From Candidatus Bathyarchaeota archaeon (GTDB taxonomy: Archaea; Thermoproteota; Bathyarchaeia; Bathyarchaeales; Bathycorpusculaceae): DNA of 64,000 nt. Below the pieces are notes generated by a model. It was not told the DNA's origin and did no database searches. It saw nothing but the letters and a program-made list of their open reading frames with translations. The position numbers were made by a program, and so were the translations under genes. Location: NCBI GenBank assembly GCA_963775895.1, contig CAVZKL010000027.1, positions 20,565 to 84,564 on the forward strand, given 5' to 3'. Position 1 is the stretch's first letter. The number at the start of each line of letters is the position of its first letter. Of the stretch, positions 4,458 through 20,077 are shown piece by piece.

Positions 4458-5480
4458 CTATTGGGAAACTTCTTCTAGAATTTCATATCCTTCACCTACA
4501 GGGTCTAAACCAGCTTTTTGCATGTCCGCATCCACCATTATTTTTATCAGTTCCTTAAATCTAATCTTCGGATTCCAAGCTAACTTTTTTCTAGCTTTAC
4601 TTGGATCAGCAACCAACTCTTCAGTCTCAGTAGGTCTAAAATACCTTGGATCAATCTTTACATATTTGTCAAACTGCAAATCGACATAAGAGAAAGCTTG
4701 TTCAACAAACTCTCTAACCGAATGCGCTTCACCTGTCCCTAAGACAAAATCCTCTGCGGGGTTGGTTTGTAATATTTTCCACATAGCCTCTACATATTCT
4801 GGTGCATATCCCCAATCACGTTTTGCATCAAGATTCCCAAGATAAAGAACATTTTGTTTCTTAGCCAAAATGTTCGCTATCGCTCTTGTTATTTTTCTGG
4901 TCACAAAAGTTTCACCTCTTCTGGGAGATTCGTGATTAAACAAAATTCCATTGCACGCAAATAGGTTGTACCCTTCCCGATAGTTAACCGTCGTCCAAAA
5001 CGCATGGACTTTCGCAATTGCATAAGGACTCCTCGGCCTGAAAGGCGTTTCTTCGTTTTGAGGAGGGGGAGAACTCCCAAACATCTCACTACTGGACGCT
5101 TGATAAAACTTCACATTATTTCCACTTCTTCGAATAGCTTCCAAAATCCTGGTTGTGCCCAACGCAGTGACGTTTCCTGTATATTCTGGAATATCAAAAC
5201 TTACTCGGACATGACTTTGAGCACCCAAATGATAGACTTCATCTGGCTTGATATTATAAATTATGTTTGATATTTGCTCAGCATCCGAAAGATCCCCGTA
5301 ATGAAGAAAGAATCTCGCCCCAGGTTCATGAGGATCTACATAGATATGATCTATCCTCGCAGTATTGAAGGTACTAGCTCTTCTAATTATTCCATGCACT
5401 TCATAGCCTTTTGAAAGCAAAAGTTCTGCTAAATACGAACCATCTTGTCCAGTTATTCCAGTAATGAGTACTTTCTTCAT
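4458..5480 (-). CDS. gmd: GDP-mannose 4,6-dehydratase
   Basis: [59 protein letters not shown]. Confidence 0.96.
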
Positions 5481-10851: not shown

Positions 10852-11238
10852 TTAACGGTCAATGACTCCGGACTTGTTGAGATTCATTATGGCCAGAAAA
10901 TTTGCGAAGGAAATGTCGAATGCCCAGTTTCGAGCACGTGTGTTGCCCCATTTCTGAGCTAAGGAACTGAGCCTACGGGCGAGCCGAAGTCCAATTTCTC
11001 TCATTATACGTGAGAAGGCAAGATTGTTCTCAGAAACTCCCTCCAACTTGTTCACGACGGAGAAAATGGCTTTCGCCAACGCTGGACTGTGAACTCTGTC
11101 AGCAACCCTAATAGTCAGATTGACCAACACGCGATCGATTCTATTTAGATTTCTCAGCCATGAGCCTACTCTTTGTGCCCTCAACCTCAGCTTCAACAGC
11201 CCAGTTCTACCAAGAACAAAATTATCCTTTCCACTCAC
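10852..11238 (-). CDS. Hypothetical basic protein heading the glycosylation cluster
   Basis: 128-aa ORF co-oriented with the cluster; no recognised domain. Confidence 0.55.
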   Translation of the reverse strand: MSGKDNFVLGRTGLLKLRLRAQRVGSWLRNLNRIDRVLVNLTIRVADRVHSPALAKAIFSVVNKLEGVSENNLAFSRIMREIGLRLARRLSSLAQKWGNTRARNWAFDISFANFLAIMNLNKSGVIDR

Positions 11239-11437
11239 GCTATCCCTTCATGCATTCAAGATTATGCGCGCGCCACCTAACCTCCAATTTCTGTGAAGCA
11301 ATCAGATAAAAGACTTGCGTACACAAACGTTTCCCAGTGTACGCCGCAAATCTTGGCAGATAGTGAAATCTTGTCCCAGCTCATAGAATGCATAAATCCA
11401 AGGTTTTATCTCCTCAAACGATGTCCTACTGGCTAAG

Positions 11438-11905
11438 GTGGGTCAGATGAAGGCAGAGATTGCAATGCACAAATTGGCTAGGAATTGTCTCGAAGCTGGA
11501 GAATGGAAAGACATGCACCTGCCCGGAGGATGGTTAGGCAAAAAAGTGTTCGGCAAAATTATCGCCTGGTTCTCTGGCGAAATTCCATCCACTCAGGTTG
11601 AACTAGTGATCGACGATGACGGTCTGTCTTTGAGGGACTATGGAATTTCTGGAAGAATCGTCTACACTCCCGGGCACACGATGGGTTCAGTCAGCGTGCT
11701 GTTGGATTCTGGAGAGGCTTTTGTGGGAGATCTCACAATGAACAAGTTTCCCCTCAGGCTTGGACCAGGACTGCCCACCATCGCTGAAGATGACCTCAAT
11801 GTCAAGGAAAGCTGGAAAAAGTTACTGGAACTCGGAGCAACAACAGTCTATCCTGCACACGGAAAACCCTTCTCAACCGAAGTCATCAAGAAAGCTCTTA
11901 AGTAA
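11438..11905 (+). pseudogene. MBL-fold metallo-hydrolase, N-terminally truncated
   Basis: TPGHTMGS, AFVGD, VYPAHG present; the HxHxDH motif is absent from the ORF. Confidence 0.65.
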
Positions 11906-12041
11906 TACACCATAGGCATGAGTGTTGTATTCGCGCCAGCTGGCAAGTTGGAGATAAGACTGGGAAAGCCACTGCTCTTCTACACCGTCACCGTGAATGG
12001 CTGTCGCTCGAATACGTTTCCCTTTCACAAGAACAGCGTTC

Positions 12042-12473
12042 TCAGAAGATATTGCGTTTCCTTTTCTTTGACCCTTCTTGGGGCACTTCAGCTTCGCTTT
12101 GCTCAGGCTGCGGCAACACGCCTGCGCTAACGCCCTCGCCAGCTTCTTCAGAAATCTCTTGTACAGGCTCAGGAGGCGTCTCGCTTGGAGTGCTCTCTAT
12201 TGCAGACGAAGTCTTCAGTTGCTGTTCCAAGATCGCTATCTTGTCCTCCAGTTCTTTCACTGCAGCATCGTGCGTACGCTTCTCTTCTTCAAGAATTTGG
12301 ACAAGTAGATTCCTATCGATAGCGAGTTTTTCCGCGCGCGCTTTTTCCTCCAGAATCTTAGTCTTCTCTTCCAGCGATCTTCGTCCCTTTTCAAGGCGTT
12401 TGGATTCTTCTTCTGGTCTTGTCTTTGTCTGTTGAAGTCCCTGAAGGTTGTCTGTGTTGCTCAATTGGTTCAC
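12042..12473 (-). CDS. Hypothetical coiled-coil protein with acidic/Pro tail
   Basis: E/K/L heptad-rich N-half; ends in KKRKRNIF. Confidence 0.6.
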   Translation of the reverse strand: MNQLSNTDNLQGLQQTKTRPEEESKRLEKGRRSLEEKTKILEEKARAEKLAIDRNLLVQILEEEKRTHDAAVKELEDKIAILEQQLKTSSAIESTPSETPPEPVQEISEEAGEGVSAGVLPQPEQSEAEVPQEGSKKRKRNIF

Positions 12474-12628
12474 CTTGAAGGGTAGTTTCTGTTGAAGATA
12501 TAATTGATTTATGAATTGGAACTATGTATCGCAGATATACTCAAGGGACGCGCACTTCAGCGCGCGCGTTGCTAGAGAATGAAATTTGATTGATTTCTCA
12601 TAGAAAAAAGAGAGAAGAAAGAGCTGTC

Positions 12629-12883
12629 TTAGCTCTTTCCAAAGTTCTTAACAACTTCAGCAATGTCCCTCAGATCTATGCGTCCATCTAGGTTGAGATC
12701 ACAGGCAGGATTCCATCTGGGATCAGACGGAAAAGCTCCAAAAGCTTTCACAACAAGTGCTACATCTTTCATGTCAACCTTTCCGTCACCATTGACATCA
12801 CCTGCAATAGCATGTACCGAAGAGATGCAGAACACAGACATGAGGAACAGTAGAGCTATTCCGACAAGTATTTTCCGGTTCAC
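12629..12883 (-). CDS. Secreted dockerin type I domain protein
   Basis: Signal peptide (..SSVHA) then GDVNGDGKVDMKD and DLNLDGRIDLRD duplicated Ca-binding repeats. Confidence 0.85.
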   Translation of the reverse strand: MNRKILVGIALLFLMSVFCISSVHAIAGDVNGDGKVDMKDVALVVKAFGAFPSDPRWNPACDLNLDGRIDLRDIAEVVKNFGKS

Positions 12884-13041
12884 GGGTTATCACCTCAAGA
12901 TAACATACGTATGTTGAATCACTAAAGATTGTTTTCAGTTTAACGCGTTGAAATGATGGTTGAAGTCCTGTTGAATGAGTTTACTCTGTTGAAAGAGGGA
13001 ATTTTGATTGAGCATGCACGCTAAAGTCTAGGCATAAAAGA

Positions 13042-13959
13042 CTACTTGTTGTATTTCTCCCTAAGCTGTGGGATGGCCTCCGTCGCTATCCTCTCGAACA
13101 TGGGCAGCTGCTCCTCACGGTAAGGATAGTAGAGTCCGAACTCGGTAATCCCCACCCCGATGAATTTCTGCACCATATCGACGAAGATTTCCTCTGATTC
13201 ATAGTAGTTAATCAACCCACCACTCGTTCGAGCCTTCGTATCGAACATCAAGTAAGAACGACGAAGTGAGGAGGGGTCCCTCCCGATATCTGAACAGTAT
13301 TTGTCAACAAGTTGGTTGCGTTTGCGCGTCTCATCCAGCTGTTCCTCTAGAGTGTTGGCTTGGCTGATTGAATTCCAAGTATCCGCGTATCGAGCCGCAT
13401 ACTTCATCATAATGATCCTCCATGCAGCAATGGTGATGGGAGGACGAGGTTTCTGAATCGAACGCGGTTTCATCACGGCTCCCTCAACATTGTAATAGCG
13501 TCCTTTGTAGGTTGTGACCTCGTTTGACAACATTTGATCCACGATCTCAACATACTCTTTGAAGCGTGCCACTCTTTCTTTGTTGCTCCAATTCGGGATA
13601 CCCATCATGTCACAGGCAGGGTCGATTCGAAACCCCGTGCCCAAGCCCAGCTCCAGTCGACCGTTCGAAATGTGGTCGACCGTCAGGGCTTGACGGGCAA
13701 GGAGAGCAGGGTTCCGGAATGGAATCTGAGTCACCAACGTTGCTAGTCGTATGTTGGTTGTTTCAGCAGCTACCGCAGCTAGGAGGGTCCATAGCTCAAA
13801 CCAGGGGTCATTTGGGTTAGACCAATTTACAAAATGGTCTCCGGTCCCTGTGATATCGAAGCCTAACTCTTCAACGTGTTTAAAACGCTTAATCATCTCT
13901 TTCCAAGATGCGTTTGGCAATGGACCTGTGAAGAATCTCAGCTTATGATTCAACTTCAT
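13042..13959 (-). CDS. LLM-class flavin/F420-dependent oxidoreductase
   Basis: GDHF, LAAVAAETTNIRL, FRNPALLARQALTVDHISNGRLELGLGTG, QKPRPPI. Confidence 0.9.
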   Translation of the reverse strand: MKLNHKLRFFTGPLPNASWKEMIKRFKHVEELGFDITGTGDHFVNWSNPNDPWFELWTLLAAVAAETTNIRLATLVTQIPFRNPALLARQALTVDHISNGRLELGLGTGFRIDPACDMMGIPNWSNKERVARFKEYVEIVDQMLSNEVTTYKGRYYNVEGAVMKPRSIQKPRPPITIAAWRIIMMKYAARYADTWNSISQANTLEEQLDETRKRNQLVDKYCSDIGRDPSSLRRSYLMFDTKARTSGGLINYYESEEIFVDMVQKFIGVGITEFGLYYPYREEQLPMFERIATEAIPQLREKYNK

Positions 13960-13999
13960 ATTCTTCTCGATGTTTTTGTTATACACTTCTAAGGATAAG

Positions 14000-14025
14000 G
14001 GTTTGGGGTAAAGTTTTATCCAACC
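14000..14025. repeat. Imperfect palindromic repeat, copy A (GGTTTGGGGTAAAGTTTTATCCAACC)
   Basis: 16-bp core GGGGTAAAGTTTTATC identical to 17513-17528; related inverted copy at 17784-17808. Confidence 0.75.
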
Positions 14026-14058
14026 ACACCAAATCAAAAAGACTGTGCGCGCGTCACT

Positions 14059-14856
14059 TCATACTCCTATCTTGAATAGTAATTGACTTAGAGTTTCAAC
14101 CGTTACCCCAATGCTTTTCAGATAAGCCATCTGAATTGTAAAGTCATCTGTCGTAACACTATATTCAGTTCCACTGTCCAATTGATGATAAACCAACGCT
14201 ACTATCTCACTTCCACCAGCAGAATCCGTAATATTCTCAAAAATGTCAATGTTTGTCATGTTGGTGATTGTGTAAGCTGGAATTGCCCATCTGTCAAACT
14301 CAGTGTCATTTATGTCGAAACTTCCTTCCTCAACTGTTCTTGCTGAAAGATAATACTTAGCAACTTCATTCCTTACTGTATTGTTATCGAAACCTTCTCC
14401 CTCTGGATATATGAATAACTTTGAATCATAACCTTGTTCCTTGAGAACCTTCTGACTTTGCGAAAGTTCAAAATCTAGTTCAGCAGAAGACACATTGTTT
14501 AGATTTGGGTGTGTTACTGAATGACTTTCAATGTCATTGCCTTTATCGAACAATTGCTTCACTTCGTCCCAAGTAACGTATGCTGGATATTCTCCATCAA
14601 CATAACTTGTTACTATTCCGAATGTAGCTTTGAATCCAAAAGTATCAAGTATTTCAGACATATTCATTTGACTCTTCCAACCGTCATCAAAAAACAATAT
14701 TACCACACTTTGATTATCATTTGGAATGTTTGGACTATAGATTATGGCATCTAATGTAGAAGAAGGTAAAGTAATTACAAATTCGTAAGCTATGAATCCG
14801 AAAGTGACACAAAATATGAGAACGAACACTATTAATAGATTATTCATGCTTCTCAT
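14059..14856 (-). CDS. Membrane-anchored polysaccharide deacetylase (NodB/CE4)
   Basis: N-terminal TM; FFDDG, IESHSVTHPNL, FIYPEG, LVYH motifs. Confidence 0.88.
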   Translation of the reverse strand: MRSMNNLLIVFVLIFCVTFGFIAYEFVITLPSSTLDAIIYSPNIPNDNQSVVILFFDDGWKSQMNMSEILDTFGFKATFGIVTSYVDGEYPAYVTWDEVKQLFDKGNDIESHSVTHPNLNNVSSAELDFELSQSQKVLKEQGYDSKLFIYPEGEGFDNNTVRNEVAKYYLSARTVEEGSFDINDTEFDRWAIPAYTITNMTNIDIFENITDSAGGSEIVALVYHQLDSGTEYSVTTDDFTIQMAYLKSIGVTVETLSQLLFKIGV

Positions 14857-16007
14857 CCAGTATGCTCAGTCTTAGTTTCTCCCCATGACTTTGTAAAAGA
14901 AGAAAGAATGAAAACTAGTAACCAATGGTAAGAAAAAATATAATGTGCTGGAAGATATTTCAACAAACGCTTTCCATTATTCTTGATTAAAACAATCGAC
15001 ACTGCTACATAAACACTTAAAGATGAAATTAGCCAAACAGCTACAGGAGGATACCAATATTTTATAGAATTTGTCAATATATAAACTGCCATCAAACAGT
15101 TTGAAGAATACCACGCAATGTTGTAAAATGGATGAACCATATAAAGAAAATCAGCGAAGTTCATCTTTTCTCTAAAACGTTTTTTCATAACATTAAAATG
15201 ACCTTTATTCCATCGTCTTCTCTGACGAAAAACTGTTGACCAAGTAGAAGGTTTTTCATCAAACGAAATTAGATTTGGAACATACATTATTTTTGCTTTT
15301 TCTTTTTCAAGTTTGCAGAATAAATCATAATCTTCTGTTAATTCGTGGTCCCATCCACCTACTTTTTCGATAAGTTTTTTTCTGAAGAATACTCCAGTAC
15401 CTCCTAACGTGCAACTAATATTCCACGCATTTCTTCCTCCCCAATATATATGAGCAAACGCTTCGTATTCTAAACATTGAACTTTTGTTAGTATGTTAAA
15501 ATTCTCGTTTGCTGTTTTGAGTTTTGACTGAATAGCGTCTGCATTTACTGGAGGCTCAAAATACTTAACGGCTCTTTCTAAATATGTGTTTGAATTGATT
15601 CTATTATCAGCATCCATTTCTAAAATCAAATCGCCCTTGGCATATTTTAATGCGTAATTTAATGGATATGTTTTACCACTTTTAGCTGTTTTAAGTGGTA
15701 GCACTCTAATTCTTGGATCTGAATATTTTAGAGCTACTTCTTCAGTATTATCTTTACAATTATGAGGTATTACAATTATCTCAAAGTTCTTATATGTCTG
15801 AACGAGTAAGTCAGAAATGAGATTTCCTATGACTTTTCCTTCATTGTTTGCTGGTATAAAAACTGAAACCATTTTACTGCTTTCTGTTTTTTCATTTGTT
15901 TTGGGTGGATGATAGAATAAACTTGAAACAGCAAAAAACACCCACGTAAGTGCATACAATGCCATAAAAGAAGAAATTATGATTGAAAGTATAGAAACAT
16001 CAATCAT
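14853..16007 (-). CDS. Processive-type GT2 (IcaA/PgaC/cellulose-synthase-like)
   Basis: IPANNEG, GKTYPLN, MDAD, LGGTG, LTEDYD, QRRRW; TM helices at both ends. Confidence 0.88.
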   Translation of the reverse strand: MIDVSILSIIISSFMALYALTWVFFAVSSLFYHPPKTNEKTESSKMVSVFIPANNEGKVIGNLISDLLVQTYKNFEIIVIPHNCKDNTEEVALKYSDPRIRVLPLKTAKSGKTYPLNYALKYAKGDLILEMDADNRINSNTYLERAVKYFEPPVNADAIQSKLKTANENFNILTKVQCLEYEAFAHIYWGGRNAWNISCTLGGTGVFFRKKLIEKVGGWDHELTEDYDLFCKLEKEKAKIMYVPNLISFDEKPSTWSTVFRQRRRWNKGHFNVMKKRFREKMNFADFLYMVHPFYNIAWYSSNCLMAVYILTNSIKYWYPPVAVWLISSLSVYVAVSIVLIKNNGKRLLKYLPAHYIFSYHWLLVFILSSFTKSWGETKTEHTG

Positions 16008-16387
16008 CCAATAACACCTACAGGCAAAGGCAAAGAAAATCCAATTGAAGACAAAAGCGTAGTTACGAGAATTGTAGAAACAGAGCTAGCAAACAAAAAA
16101 GTTAACAAAAAAAGAGCTAAGTCACTTAGATTTTCAATGCCCAATTCTGATCGTAATGGTCTAGCATGTATCTTACTACGAGACAAAGTAACAAAAATCA
16201 AAAGAGTAACTATTATTCCTATAGGAGATGCTAGTGTCCTTGTAAAAACTACACCAACCATACTAGAAGCAATAATTATTAATATCCACACATAAAATTT
16301 CACTCTATAAGCGCGCGCTTTGGTTATTCCAGAAACTGCTATAGAATATTTATTCTTCTTCTTGCGTAGAAACATTAAATGCACCAT
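16004..16387 (-). CDS. Small multi-TM membrane protein
   Basis: Basic N-terminus then about 3-4 hydrophobic segments; overlaps both neighbours in operon fashion. Confidence 0.65.
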   Translation of the reverse strand: MVHLMFLRKKKNKYSIAVSGITKARAYRVKFYVWILIIIASSMVGVVFTRTLASPIGIIVTLLIFVTLSRSKIHARPLRSELGIENLSDLALFLLTFLFASSVSTILVTTLLSSIGFSLPLPVGVIG

Positions 16388-17174
16388 TTTCTAGCGCGCG
16401 CGCCAAAAATTTCTTATATTCTTCATCTATGTTTATCGCACCTTGAAGAATAGGTGAACTCATCATATGAAGAAGATAGCGAACATCTTTTGGAAGACAT
16501 TCACCACCTATGCCTTTTCGTGCTTCAAGTATTTGCAAACTATAATCTTCCCTTTTTAGAGTATTACAAGCACGCCTAAGTTCTGCAAAAGAAACCTTAC
16601 TTTTCTTACAAGCCATCAACAACGATTCTGCAAATGCAATTTGAACGAAACGATATGCATTCTCTGTCACTTTTGTCATTTCTGCAATTTCCAATGATGA
16701 CAAAACTGTTATAGGAATGCCGAGACTTTCGTAAAATCCTTTTCCTAATACTAAACTTTCATCATTTAGTGCTCCAAAAACTCTTTTTTGTACTACACCG
16801 TAGTTCTTTTGGTCGTATTGCCACCATCTATGTGGACAAACAACTACATGATTAAACCCGTATTTGTTTGCCATTGCTCTTGCTGTACCAACTGATAAAG
16901 TAGATTCAAAACAAATAAGCGATTCTTTGTCTGCTATTTTACTGCAAACTGAATCTACAGCAGACATATCGGGCTCATTATTCTTGAACCAAGTGTTTAC
17001 TGCAATAATATAAACATCTGGGTCTTCTAATTTCATTGAAGCTTTCAATCCCGCTTTGATGGCCGTCTCTATAGCGACACTAGATATATCACACCCATAC
17101 GTTTCATAAAATTTAGAAACATGCAAAGCTACTGGCAACCCTATGTTTCCTAGTCCTATTACACAAACTTTCAT
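16350..17174 (-). CDS. UDP-glucose/GDP-mannose dehydrogenase family protein (short)
   Basis: MKVCVIGLGNIGLP, FEST, AEMTKVTENAYR..IAFA, GIGGECLPKD; lacks the usual C-terminal domain. Confidence 0.85.
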   Translation of the reverse strand: MKVCVIGLGNIGLPVALHVSKFYETYGCDISSVAIETAIKAGLKASMKLEDPDVYIIAVNTWFKNNEPDMSAVDSVCSKIADKESLICFESTLSVGTARAMANKYGFNHVVVCPHRWWQYDQKNYGVVQKRVFGALNDESLVLGKGFYESLGIPITVLSSLEIAEMTKVTENAYRFVQIAFAESLLMACKKSKVSFAELRRACNTLKREDYSLQILEARKGIGGECLPKDVRYLLHMMSSPILQGAINIDEEYKKFLARALENGAFNVSTQEEE

Positions 17175-17267
17175 ATCGCGCGCGCAGGGTGTCATATACT
17201 CTGCGTCATGGGAACCTATTTGGCCTGATCCAATTATGAGCATGTCAGATTTGCTAACGCTCAAGCC

Positions 17268-17307
17268 TTACGACCTCAGAATCCGTATACGGAATCTTGA
17301 GTCGTAA
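17268..17307. promoter_or_regulatory. 40-bp imperfect inverted repeat upstream of the polysaccharide operon
   Basis: TTACGACCTCAGAATCCGTATACGGAATCTTGAGTCGTAA, with perfect core TCCGTATACGGA and ends TTACGAC/GTCGTAA; function unknown. Confidence 0.5.
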
Positions 17308-17507
17308 TAAACGTTGTGCCAGCCCTGTCTTACACAACTACACACACCGCGAAACGACCTTTTCATAGCGCGCTATTGGTCTTAGGTTTATTATGAGGGG
17401 TAAATTTTCGTTCTTTTTTGACCCTCGTAGCATCAACTGACTATCCTGTCCTTTTCTGTTACACTGATATTCCGTGTGGTCGTCGTGGTCCGTGATCGTT
17501 CGTCGTT

Positions 17508-17528
17508 GGTTGGGGGTAAAGTTTTATC
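17508..17528. repeat. Repeat copy B (GGTTGGGGGTAAAGTTTTATC), same orientation as copy A
   Basis: Direct match to 14000-14020. Confidence 0.75.
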
Positions 17529-17582
17529 GCACGCGCGGTACATTTTTAACTGTCTTTCGTCCAATAGAGTGAAGGTGCGTTC

Positions 17583-17756
17583 ATGGACAAGTATGATGTC
17601 CTGTTCCTTTTTGGGGCTATCTTAGCACTGTGTGGTGCTATCTTGGCTGCACCCTTGCAGCTGCAAGGAGGCAATAATCCTGGAGTGGTGCTTCTGTTCG
17701 TGGGAATCATTGTGATGATTGTCGGCGTAGCTCTCAAGTTCACCAAAAAGCCATAG
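17583..17756 (+). CDS. Small two-TM membrane protein (57 aa), not in ORF track
   Basis: ATG..TAG; MDKYDVLFLFGAILALCGAILAAPLQLQGGNNPGVVLLFVGIIVMIVGVALKFTKKP; GAAGGTG upstream. Confidence 0.6.
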   Translation: MDKYDVLFLFGAILALCGAILAAPLQLQGGNNPGVVLLFVGIIVMIVGVALKFTKKP

Positions 17757-17783
17757 TCAGGTTGTGGTTTACCTGTTGGGTTT

Positions 17784-17808
17784 GGTTCGATAAAACTTCA
17801 CGTCAACC
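17784..17808. repeat. Repeat copy C, inverted (reverse complement GGTTGACGTGAAGTTTTATCGAACC)
   Basis: Shares AAGTTTTATC core and GGTT/AACC ends with copy A. Confidence 0.65.
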
Positions 17809-17935
17809 AACCAAAATGACGATGAATGCGGAAAAGTCATAGCTGAAACCGAAAATGGGGAAGTATCGTTCTGTAAATGAACCGAGTTATTGGATGTGGC
17901 CATAGTCTTAAATAGATCCCTGAAAGAGTGTTTTT

Positions 17936-18334
17936 TTGGCAAACATCATGAATTTGGCGAAACTGTTGTGGGTGTGTGCGTTTGCCTTTATGGTCTATCT
18001 ATCGTTGTTGCTTCTCAGACTGTCTAGTGTCCTGGGAAGCGAGTTCGACATCTTGATGCGATCGGTTTCAGCTATTGACTTAATCTTGTTAGGAGTTTTT
18101 GTGGGAACACTCATCTCGCAAAAGCAGATTCGAGTTCGAGCGATGCTGTTACCCTCTCTCTTGTTTGTCCTAGGATTCTTAGCTGCTCCATTCGTTGGAA
18201 TTGGAGTGCTGGTGCTGTTTGAAAACCTAGGTTTTGACAATCCAGCGATGTTTGGAGTGAGTATCACAACCTACCTCTTTCTCTACATGGGACTATGGTT
18301 CTGGCTTAAAAAGAAGGGCATATTCAAGAGGTGA
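17936..18334 (+). CDS. Hypothetical four-TM membrane protein
   Basis: Four hydrophobic segments, basic C-terminus. Confidence 0.6.
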   Translation: MANIMNLAKLLWVCAFAFMVYLSLLLLRLSSVLGSEFDILMRSVSAIDLILLGVFVGTLISQKQIRVRAMLLPSLLFVLGFLAAPFVGIGVLVLFENLGFDNPAMFGVSITTYLFLYMGLWFWLKKKGIFKR

Positions 18335-18538
18335 AACACTTAAAAGCGCGTGCGAAGCTGGCAATGTGGCGATCGGATACGCGGCAGTTCTATGCATACA
18401 CCAAATTGAACATAACGGCCACGTAGAAACTACTTAAACGCTGCTACATTCACCTCGAGCTAGGACAACGCGTGGAACCTGAATCTGAATTCGGTCTTCA
18501 TAATCGAGATATCCCCCTCAACAGCAGACCCTCACCCT

Positions 18539-18904
18539 ATGGAATCAGAAACCGAGAAACCCGCGATTCAAATAGACGCGCAAAACAAACGGGAGACTCG
18601 TCCAAAAAACTTTGTGCTGTACGAGGAATTCAGCCACAAAAACATTGCGGAAACCATCAAAATTCACAGAACCAAGTTCGAACGGGCAAACGCTGAAAAG
18701 AAGAACAGTCTCGAAGTCGAAGCCGACGACGAAGTACAAGCCTTCCGCATCTGGCTCGAAGAAACCAAACACTTCCAACCCATCGAAGCCCACTACTACT
18801 CGATAAGCCTCAAAAGCCTACTCGTCGGCCTACCCACAGGCATCAGCCTCGCACGCCTGTTCAACACAATCCTCGACAGACTCCCCACACCCGACGACGT
18901 TTAA
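18539..18904 (+). CDS. Hypothetical protein
   Basis: 121-aa ATG ORF with coding-like composition. Confidence 0.55.
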   Translation: MESETEKPAIQIDAQNKRETRPKNFVLYEEFSHKNIAETIKIHRTKFERANAEKKNSLEVEADDEVQAFRIWLEETKHFQPIEAHYYSISLKSLLVGLPTGISLARLFNTILDRLPTPDDV

Positions 18905-19033
18905 CACGCACACACCGGGCATATTTGGATCCTAATATTCATGATACATTGAAACCGAGGAGGGGGAGGTACACAATAAGCTTTTTTCAGCGAATAAACA
19001 GCCTCCAACCCACACTCAAACCGCGCTAAAACC

Positions 19034-19405
19034 CTAACCGGCTGCACTAATCCTTCTTATGCCTCTCCTTCTCATCCGCTTTTTCCCATGTTTCTTCCTG
19101 AAAAACCAAGGATAACGCTGCATATCCTCATAAATGGGTCTCGGCATGCGACCCGTGTAAACGTCCGGACGCCCCTCAGGGTTCACCAACGGATACTTCA
19201 TCCTAGCATTCTTAATCGTGACCCAGTACACAAAATACACCGAAAACACGAAGGCAGCCACCGCCAACGCCAACGGCCAAATCAACCCAGCGTAAGCAAG
19301 ACCACCCATCGGAAGCAAATACAAGAGAACGACAAACAGGAAACCCAACCAGAACCTCGTCTTCCTGCGCATCCCACCCACCAAAAACACAATGGAAACA
19401 ACCAA
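19034..19405 (-). CDS. Hypothetical two-TM membrane protein with basic tail
   Basis: RRKTRF then two TM segments; R/K-rich C-terminus. Confidence 0.55.
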   Translation of the reverse strand: MVVSIVFLVGGMRRKTRFWLGFLFVVLLYLLPMGGLAYAGLIWPLALAVAAFVFSVYFVYWVTIKNARMKYPLVNPEGRPDVYTGRMPRPIYEDMQRYPWFFRKKHGKKRMRRRGIRRISAAG

Positions 19406-19527
19406 CTCTTACATCTTACGGTCAACACCCAAGCCCAGCTCTCCACACTCCACCGAGAAACAAACGAGAAGTTGTCAAAAAACAGAACCACCAAACAGCT
19501 TTGAATTGATTTTAAACCATTTTGACC

Positions 19528-19546
19528 GAAGGAAAACCATATAAAT
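19528..19546 (+). promoter_or_regulatory. Putative BRE/TATA promoter of the ribosomal protein operon
   Basis: GAAGGAAAACCATATAAAT about 45 bp upstream of the rpl22 ATG. Confidence 0.5.
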
Positions 19547-19588
19547 CACCATACCGCTGTTGAATTGCACAACTGGAGAGTACATAGA

Positions 19589-20077
19589 ATGCCAAAATGG
19601 GGATACTCGATACCCGAAGAAAGGCTGGACCCCGAAAAAAGCGTGAAAGCCAGCGCACGCGAGATCAGAGTATCCCATAAAGCAGCCAGAGAAGTGTGCA
19701 AAGCCATAAAAGGAATGATGCTAACCCAGGCCAAAAAGTACCTCAACGACGTCATCGCCAAGAAAAAACCCGTGCCGTACAAACGCTTCACAAAAAAAGT
19801 CGGACACAGACACGGGTTGGAAAAGGCTTTCGCCGGCAGATACCCCGTGAAAGCCTCAAAACACATCCTCAAACTCCTCGAAGGCGCCGAAGCCAACGCT
19901 GAAAACAAAGGCTTAGACACAGACCGCATGCGCATCATCCACGCGGCTTCTCATCAAGGCATGAAACAAAAACGTTTTCAACCCAGGGCCCAAGGAAGAG
20001 CAAGCCCCAGTTTTGAAACCCTAACACACGTGGAAGTGGCCCTCGAAGAAATGGGCGAGAAAGGAGAAGCCACGTAA
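19589..20077 (+). CDS. rpl22: 50S ribosomal protein uL22
   Basis: VSHKAAREVC, VGHRHG, GRYPVKA, PRAQGRA. Confidence 0.95.
   Translation: MPKWGYSIPEERLDPEKSVKASAREIRVSHKAAREVCKAIKGMMLTQAKKYLNDVIAKKKPVPYKRFTKKVGHRHGLEKAFAGRYPVKASKHILKLLEGAEANAENKGLDTDRMRIIHAASHQGMKQKRFQPRAQGRASPSFETLTHVEVALEEMGEKGEAT

Follow-up and report, generated by a model that had tools for sequence, protein, structure and literature searches.

On Acinetobacter plasmids, small accessory modules are described as lying between pdif sites, 28-bp-type sequences of 11-6-11 layout associated with XerC and XerD, and these dif modules are reported to recur in differing contexts, with both inversions and deletions (PMC13141974). 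Repetitive extragenic palindromic (REP) sequences, bacterial interspersed mosaic elements (BIMEs) and REPINs, which are linked with REP-associated tyrosine transposases (RAYTs), are described as short, extragenic, imperfect palindromes that are lineage specific (PMC3733652, PMC2817692, PMC3116915). Integrons have been reported from Archaea (PMC9668308), and the archaeal dif/XerA system is described with imperfect 11-bp inverted repeats and a 6-bp spacer in non-coding DNA (PMC2958812). Here, we analyse a stretch of 64,000 nucleotides (hereafter, the window) from a Candidatus Bathyarchaeota archaeon (assembly GCA_963775895.1, contig CAVZKL010000027.1, positions 20,565 to 84,564), in which three related short sites, A, B and C, lie among accessory genes. 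Bathyarchaeia are abundant, uncultured sediment archaea whose gene exchange is largely uncharted.

All three sites are instances of a hitherto undescribed junction unit, which occurs throughout one genus-level group of Bathyarchaeia and is specific to it; no description of the motif was found in the literature. The unit is extragenic and accumulates in the flexible genome, mostly in direct arrays whose intervals hold one gene each; gains, losses and inversions of the unit are independent of the adjoining gene modules. A sequence-only reading of the window had proposed that the sites are recombination sites of the Xer/dif or integron type or, alternatively, the ends of a small repeat element. 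Tentatively, and as a reading that could well prove wrong, we regard A, B and a decayed C as an autonomous, putatively protein-bound junction unit of the REP or miniature inverted-repeat transposable element (MITE) type, ~28-45 bp long, with a centre like the archaeal B recognition element (BRE) and TATA box.

The repeat unit and its distribution

The letters, coordinates and strands of all three sites, re-read from the window, are exactly those of the sequence-only reading, including the 16-mer GGGGTAAAGTTTTATC common to A and B (Table 1). C is a reversed copy with three changes within the 16-mer, and its score by position weight matrix (PWM) falls in a bin where shuffles yield about as many matches; a metagenome contig (X3) carries a perfect, reverse-oriented copy at the place of C, the contig end being loose before 17808. 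In the window, the 14-mer core has ten matches at up to three mismatches, compared with 5.01 +/- 2.04 in shuffles, none of 100 of which reached ten. The genome to which the window belongs (G000; 1.77 Mb in 28 contigs, 89% complete) contains 19 exact 14-mers of the core and 30 PWM hits of at least 22 bits, as against none in three Markov shuffles. With the counts in both window and genome above those of the shuffles, chance is no explanation for the match between A and B. A further core match with two mismatches, TGTGAAGTTTTATC, lies at 5102-5115 on the minus strand of the window.

Aligned copies reveal an invariant, asymmetric 16-bp core between two simple-repeat arms. The left arm is G/T-rich, i.e., (GGTT)n, (GGGTTT)n, (GT)n or occasionally (GA)n, and the right arm is a C/A-rich repeat, (GC)n or (TC)n; past ~25 bp, the flanks of different copies are unrelated. 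Across 87 distinct copies, taken from G000 and 19 loci of relatives, the core positions are 95-100% identical. The site is readable as 11-6-11, with 11-bp inverted arms around AAGTTT that are mirrored out to 9-11 bp: counted from the centre, the arms match at positions 2-5 and 7-9 and are asymmetric only at positions 1 and 6, each of which is retained in 95-100% of the 87 copies. Rare copies with two G-type or two T-type arms exist; by hand count, they are no commoner than other single-base variants.

The hairpin noted earlier at these sites does not hold up as a conserved feature, since the arms of a copy are no more complementary than swapped arms. Mean folding energy was -5.12 kcal/mol with own arms and -5.68 +/- 0.29 with permuted arms, and 197 of 200 permutations were as stable as or stabler than the matched arms, so that covariation between the arms was not detected.

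G000 holds about 37-42 copies, and 38 of 42 are intergenic according to a simple gene model of our own, which was also applied to the counts of neighbour direction given below. The relatives used for comparison are different species, with about 75-80% identity to G000. The exact 14-mer is present in ten of ten same-genus genomes, with 12-32 copies in those at least 93% complete, and occurs zero to two times in 30 genomes of other genera from the same family and order (reversed-pattern controls, 0-1). When one to two mismatches are allowed in the 16-mer, near-complete same-genus genomes have 27-47 copies (reversed-pattern controls, 0-5), the figure at two mismatches being 29-47 in five near-complete relatives. 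When one genome of each prokaryote species was scanned, all multi-copy records among the at least 131 stretches listed were labelled Bathyarchaeia or Bathyarchaeota, and among the matches listed, single ones are spread over unrelated bacteria, as expected by chance; five of these further multi-copy genomes have 6-47 copies if up to one mismatch is allowed. Viral contigs gave 29 matches, which is about chance level, and only five contigs have units bearing the arm signature. A lack of further genomic copies, which the sequence-only reading had named as the result that would speak against it, is thus clearly not what was found. Many units in G000 lie near contig ends, and the breaking of assemblies at unit arrays calls for caution in work with metagenome-assembled genomes (MAGs).

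Arrays, modules and seams

Units are clustered in arrays, with about one gene per interval and a spacing of 0.4-3.6 kb. In the C9 array of G000, seven units in the same orientation occupy 8.4 kb with one gene per interval, a gene for a 224-aa tyrosine recombinase being among them, and similar arrays occur in three other genomes, with genes on both strands within arrays. Orientation was tallied in seven genomes from hand-compiled coordinates, with neighbouring pairs taken as independent. Adjacent units up to 4 kb apart are direct in 60 of 84 cases (71%) and inverted in 24; the co-oriented share is 28 of 40 at less than 1 kb and 32 of 44 at 1-4 kb, and the bias weakens beyond 20 kb (24 of 41). 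The cargo is made up of small accessory genes, namely those for GNAT acetyltransferases, glyoxalases, SnoaL proteins, methyltransferases, DJ-1/PfpI proteins and many proteins without known function, and a scan of 183 proteins neighbouring units revealed no transposase. The earlier proposal that the sites lie between variable accessory modules can therefore be extended from three sites to a genome-wide and genus-wide repeat family.

Replichore polarity was considered as an explanation of orientation and rejected: pairs more than 20 kb apart were the same in 24 and opposite in 17 cases, and unit orientation in G000 is independent of GC skew, AT skew and gene-strand bias. In G001, which is a single contig, units read '+' in the stretch that runs from 2.29 Mb across position 0 to 0.68 Mb, and nearly all of them read '-' between 0.79 and 2.29 Mb; there are two switches only, one of them near an orc1/cdc6 gene at 692 kb, and at cluster level the pattern is not significant (p ~0.09 over ~10 clusters).

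The unit-bearing regions are mobile and are built of small modules exchanged between species. Modules in these regions are 85-97% identical between species, compared with about 65-80% for ordinary matches, and a mosaic structure, with pieces that map to differing places in each relative, is seen both in the 11-kb C9 array and in the 12 kb surrounding the C16 units. A 1.05-kb module with a ferredoxin domain (Fer4) is 93.4% identical in G000 and G009, with unrelated DNA outside. The 57-aa gene between B and C belongs to a module that has a 91% paralogue at G000:C11:8130-8354, between two degenerate units and beside a broken recombinase gene; one contig (X5) contains this module (17536-17780) alone. 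The unit between DUF790 and a proteasome-like gene also marks a non-syntenic junction.

The evidence nonetheless stands against the units being the crossover points of module exchange. Of 138 homology-block ends at 20 loci of relatives, 14 are no more than 40 bp away from a unit, which is above the 3.6% for random bases (p 5e-4) and equal to the 10.4% for random intergenic positions (p 0.58); as many of these loci were fetched for matches to unit-flanked modules, the sample leans towards the recombination hypothesis. Nor is the unit tied to its modules, as had been supposed, since at one module end it may be forward, reversed or missing in different genomes (Table 1). Strand exchange in an asymmetric core cannot swap the arm that is joined to a module end, and the flipped units therefore weigh against a crossover in the core.

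Within the window, modules are not exchanged by crossover at the unit; the seam is the adjoining (GC)n run. Sites A, B and C had been expected to act as breakpoints, but metagenome contigs show the AT-rich island to be bordered on the left by a (GC)n run, not by A: a contig of 3221 nt (X4) matches 14047-17222 at ~97% and is unlike the window before 14047, and another (X1) has a joint from 13008 to 14047. Alternating G/C runs mark nearly every gene border of the island (14047-14053, 16311-16318, 16394-16403, 17177-17185, 17368-17373 and 17532-17537). Of the 694 (GC)n runs in G000, 430 lie in the 18% of DNA that is intergenic, and a run is found within 60 bp of 13 of 37 units, compared with 15.6% of random intergenic positions. 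The search for an empty site or circle junction, which took in metagenome contigs, not reads, and is thus weak evidence on fusions, gave no contig that clearly fuses A with B or C; in the joints 14026->17817/17819 and 14033->17827, the shorter side is only 24 and 21 letters, respectively, and consists of the motif itself.

The gene layout around the three sites agrees with the sequence-only reading. A lies just upstream of the luciferase-like monooxygenase (LLM) gene, ~40 bp from its ATG at 13959 on the minus strand; no DNA-level match to this gene was found among ten relatives. The AT-rich operon (GC 0.31-0.38) is indeed enclosed by A and B, and B is located 55 bp upstream of the ATG of the 57-aa gene and ~335 bp upstream of the operon ATG (17174). 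The left extension of B has an 83% match beside the unit C9:213 and is also matched beside units in G002 and G008. An Rfam scan of 11000-20000 with E up to 1 gave no match at A, B or C, and a tRNA scan found none near them. As stated before, there is no recombinase in the window, and no tyrosine recombinase match was found on its contig either.

Table 1. Features of the window with their positions, and state of the unit at module ends and in paralogues
Feature	Position	Strand	Details
Unit A	14000..14025	+	Core GGGGTAAAGTTTTATC at 14005-14020, left arm GGTTT, right arm CAACCACACC; 33.9 bits
Unit B	17508..17528	+	Core at 17513-17528, left arm GTTGGTTGG, right flank a (GC)-type run; 33.2 bits
Unit C	17784..17808	-	Degenerate copy GACGTGAAGTTTTATC, typical arms; 14.7 bits
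Left extension of B ('long form'), conserved	17374..17507	+	GGGGTAA...TTACCCC palindrome, then (GTC/GTG)n tract
(GC)n run, left border of AT-rich island	14047..14053		GCGCGCG, 21 bp beyond A
LLM gene, adjoins A	13042..13959	-	PF00296, 4.9e-46
AT-rich polysaccharide operon	14059..17174	-	Deacetylase, GT2 glycosyltransferase, 127-aa protein, truncated UDP-glucose dehydrogenase
57-aa gene between B and C	17583..17756	+	Within recurring module 17536-17780
TATA-like box of metallo-beta-lactamase-fold gene	11398..11412	+	AAGGTTTTATC
Family 2 copy	17828..17843	+	GCGGAAAAGTCATAGC; promoter-like, aimed at 132-aa gene
Fer4 module, left end			Unit reversed in G000 and G009, forward in G005
Fer4 module, right end			Unit forward in three genomes, reversed in G004
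GNAT module, right end			Unit reversed in G000, degenerate forward in two G001 copies
240-bp module, left end			Unit reversed in G000:C20, forward in G005, none in G009 or G000:C22
96% paralogue pair			Unit in C19, only (GC)n run in C9
Glyoxalase module			No unit in G008 or G005; present in G000, G009 and G004, the distance varying

Some further features of the window and of the unit regions may be mentioned here. The UDP-glucose dehydrogenase gene (16350-17174) comprises N-terminal and central domains only, with no match to the C-terminal domain. The metallo-beta-lactamase-fold gene at 11438-11905 is an internal-deletion derivative, in which ~250 bp are missing between two AAGGC..AGATT repeats; the open reading frame of the relatives is 224 aa long. 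Synteny with five relatives stops just upstream of the gene for ribosomal protein L22 (19500-19600), and 100-19500 of the window shares nothing with the 20 kb upstream of L22 in these relatives. One member of a multi-copy repeat family of ~85 bp lies at 18913-19010; G000 has over 25 matches to it at 90-99%, and every relative has shorter ones.

Outside the window, a 240-bp non-coding module (G000:C20 38452-38716 and C22 59712-59951) is 90-97% identical in three species. It carries look-alikes of box C (TGATGA) and box D (CTGA) between GGCGCC stems, and may be a gene for a C/D-box small RNA. An element of ~115 bp at G000:C16 45199-45318 (L026 8199-8318) forms tandem arrays in relatives, e.g., at G001 1731782-1734940 and G002:C16 33584-34288. 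Finally, a stretch of 79 nt at G000:C9 78660-78738, which is 97-100% identical in six genomes, may be a gene for a tRNA or another RNA.

Readings of the unit

Of the proposals made in the sequence-only reading, a small repeat element is the better fit. In such a REP/MITE-type unit, the core would be the binding site of a sequence-specific host protein; binding of this kind would explain why 16 bp are identical in more than 15 species and the arms drift as microsatellites. The unit might be propagated or homogenised by a REP/MITE-like process of copying or conversion, with pairing of a copy in either orientation made possible by the palindromic composition of the arms. Because its AAAG-TTTTAT centre resembles the local BRE/TATA consensus, the unit may also supply or replace a promoter for a gene starting 35-70 bp away on either side.

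Several observations weigh against this reading. The excess of co-oriented neighbours is predicted by site-specific integration and not by random insertion, and the similarity of the Fer4 module starts and stops at a unit on both sides in two species. An 11-6-11 layout with an invariant spacer is typical of tyrosine-recombinase sites. Homology blocks that end at a unit are more alike, with a median identity of 83.6% (n = 13) vs. 73.9% (n = 72; p 0.0105), and a hand tally places recombinase genes within ~3 kb of units at roughly ten loci in six genomes. The strict asymmetry of the unit shows no correlation with gene direction, unlike what would be expected of a promoter. Lastly, no enzyme is linked to the unit, and the Y1 transposase of RAYT systems (PF01797) gave no match in any of six genomes (G000, G001, G002, G008, G009 and G042).

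The main rival reading, which is rather doubtful but deserves full weighing, is that the cores are dif-like sites (11-6-11, AAGTTT) for a tyrosine recombinase acting in trans. Circular modules with one site each would then integrate at resident sites and build direct arrays, inverted sites would shuffle modules by inversion, and the whole would correspond, on an archaeal chromosome, to integron cassettes or Acinetobacter dif modules. The mirrored arms, the invariant spacer and the restriction of asymmetry to two positions are consistent with such sites, as are the one-gene intervals and their spacing, the direct orientation of most close neighbours, the cargo of cassette type, the unit-bounded Fer4 module and the duplication of the 57-aa module between degenerate units. 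Recombinase genes within or beside the arrays G000:C9 and G009:C8, and the rare copies with two like arms, point in the same direction. However, core exchange would fix the arm at each module end, and at three module ends the core faces opposite ways in different genomes; still other genomes or copies lack the unit at these module ends. The frequency of block ends near units is that of random intergenic positions, the island border is at a (GC)n run, no contig clearly fuses A with B, the shorter side of the 14026->17817 joint being the motif itself, and the variants with two like arms show no excess.

G000 has about ten tyrosine recombinase genes or fragments. The cut-off for XerA (220 bits) was not reached, the best scores being 103.9 among six G000 recombinases and 159.8 in five relatives. 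The recombinase family of the C9 array recurs beside the G009:C8 array, but its occurrence is sporadic and extends to genera that lack the motif, and no member of it was found in G001, despite 34 units there. A 338-aa SAM-like protein in a G041 array was considered as a further candidate and proved unrelated to the G000 recombinases by BLASTP. Of the expected clustering of copies near a tyrosine recombinase, the proximity of such genes to some arrays stands. The recombination-site proposal is only partly supported: it retains the 11-6-11 geometry and the direct arrays and loses ground on the block ends, the flipped units, the island border and the lack of a match to XerA or IntI above cut-off.

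An extended version of this proposal, which we consider unlikely, is that the genus runs its own chromosomal cassette-exchange system, composed of 28-bp dif-like sites, (GC)n seams and a trans-acting tyrosine recombinase. The flipped cores would in that case reflect recombination within the symmetric arms. If true, it would add a third cassette platform to integrons and Acinetobacter dif modules, and the first to be located on archaeal chromosomes.

A purely cis-regulatory or chromatin site, i.e., a bidirectional BRE/TATA promoter, a regulon operator, an insulator or a nucleoid-protein site, appears improbable. The link with module borders would then merely reflect the intergenic location, and the block-end test is compatible with there being no special role in recombination. 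The AAAG-TTTTAT centre is similar to local BRE/TATA consensus words, and a second motif family, GCGGAAAAGTTATAGC, with 13 copies in G000 and similar GGTT...AACC flanks, has 11 of 16 positions in common with the main core; there is presumably also a likeness to the SSV T6 promoter. In G008, the metallo-beta-lactamase-fold gene has a unit exactly at the position taken by its AAGG(T/C)TTTATC box in three other genomes. Moreover, start codons are concentrated 33-67 bp from units on either side, and a hand count put 18 of 35 start-adjacent distances at 30-70 bp.

The behaviour of the units towards genes, however, differs from that of a promoter in both orientation and distance. The downstream gene is co-oriented for 16 of 36 units, compared with 12 of 13 copies of family 2, which are aimed at a gene 12-92 bp away in a promoter-like manner; family 2 demonstrates that the method is able to detect a promoter, and the main family is not promoter-like in behaviour. 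Copies are not found at fixed promoter positions, the alternative that the sequence-only reading had set against itself: all four arrangements of neighbouring genes occur in the motif frame (11, 9, 8 and 8 of 36), near the intergenic background of the genome. Nine of 36 units lie between convergent gene ends according to the simple gene calls, at least five of them with short gaps. A and B each have a separate TATA-like box between unit and ATG, and the paralogue of the 57-aa module retains such a box without the unit. Furthermore, the unit is not conserved next to the same genes from species to species, and it is found almost solely in the flexible genome. It should be noted that at G000:C13 15450-19290, five copies of family 2 form a direct array adjoining two main-family units.

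The unit has GTT on its 5' side and AAC on its 3' side, the reverse of the box order of attC. That the units are integron attC sites in cassette arrays of the CALIN type (clusters of attC sites lacking integron-integrases), as arrays of short genes split by imperfect palindromes, cassette-typical cargo and the occurrence of integrons in Archaea (PMC9668308) might suggest, is scarcely credible, and this part of the sequence-only reading falls away: the best integron-integrase score (IntI, TIGR02249) among six G000 recombinases is 69.7 bits against a cut-off of 265, the unit (~28 bp at the core) is conserved in sequence and attC in structure, hairpin covariation was not found, the genes do not share one orientation, and 29% of neighbouring sites are inverted.

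As a DNA signal, the unit is sharply bounded and confined to one genus, and it marks the flexible portion of the genome, which is exchanged between species. If it is a recombination site, it represents a new cassette system, for which the 28-bp substrate is defined and the candidate recombinases are few; they include those encoded at G000:C9 71657-72331 and C22 61629-62444. If, as in the reading we prefer, it is REP-like without a Y1 transposase, then Archaea possess elements of this type that depend on a different enzyme. In both cases, the motif offers a practical means of finding accessory-gene arrays in these MAGs.

Comparison with described systems

The unit lacks defining features of integrons, Acinetobacter dif modules and REP/RAYT systems, and it is therefore filed under none of these three. 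As with integron attC sites, which are described as punctuating arrays of single-gene cassettes with similar cargo (PMC9668308), the units separate single genes; however, there is no IntI, conservation is of sequence and not of structure, the unit is shorter, and both genes and sites are of mixed orientation.

Acinetobacter dif modules are likewise described with short 11-6-11 sites between recurring small modules (PMC13141974), and the two-arm geometry is also found here. In Acinetobacter, sites alternate in orientation, whereas 71% of neighbours are direct in the present case, and a module keeps its internal arm type, whereas the Fer4, GNAT and 240-bp modules carry opposite cores at the same end. 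Unlike those plasmid sites, the unit is chromosomal and archaeal, all of its spacers are identical, and no Xer equivalog was detected.

REP and BIME sequences, in the descriptions cited above, are likewise extragenic, present or absent at given intergenic spots and found in either orientation. The GTAG or CGTC tag that PMC3733652 gives as a criterion for REP/RAYT is missing, as neither tetranucleotide occurs in the unit consensus. The unit differs further in the lack of Y1 in the six genomes, in its 30-47 copies, not hundreds, and in having a fixed centre and variable arms that do not covary. MITEs have terminal inverted repeats with target-site duplication, and a parent transposase, whereas the arms of the unit are inverted in composition only. 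With archaeal BRE/TATA elements, the unit shares its AAAG-TTTTAT centre and the resemblance to family 2, but it has no consistent orientation or position.

Archaeal dif is likewise described with imperfect 11-bp inverted arms, a 6-bp spacer and a non-coding position (PMC2958812). The two differ in number and place: archaeal dif is a single-copy site near the terminus, whereas the unit is present in 30-47 copies scattered in flexible regions.

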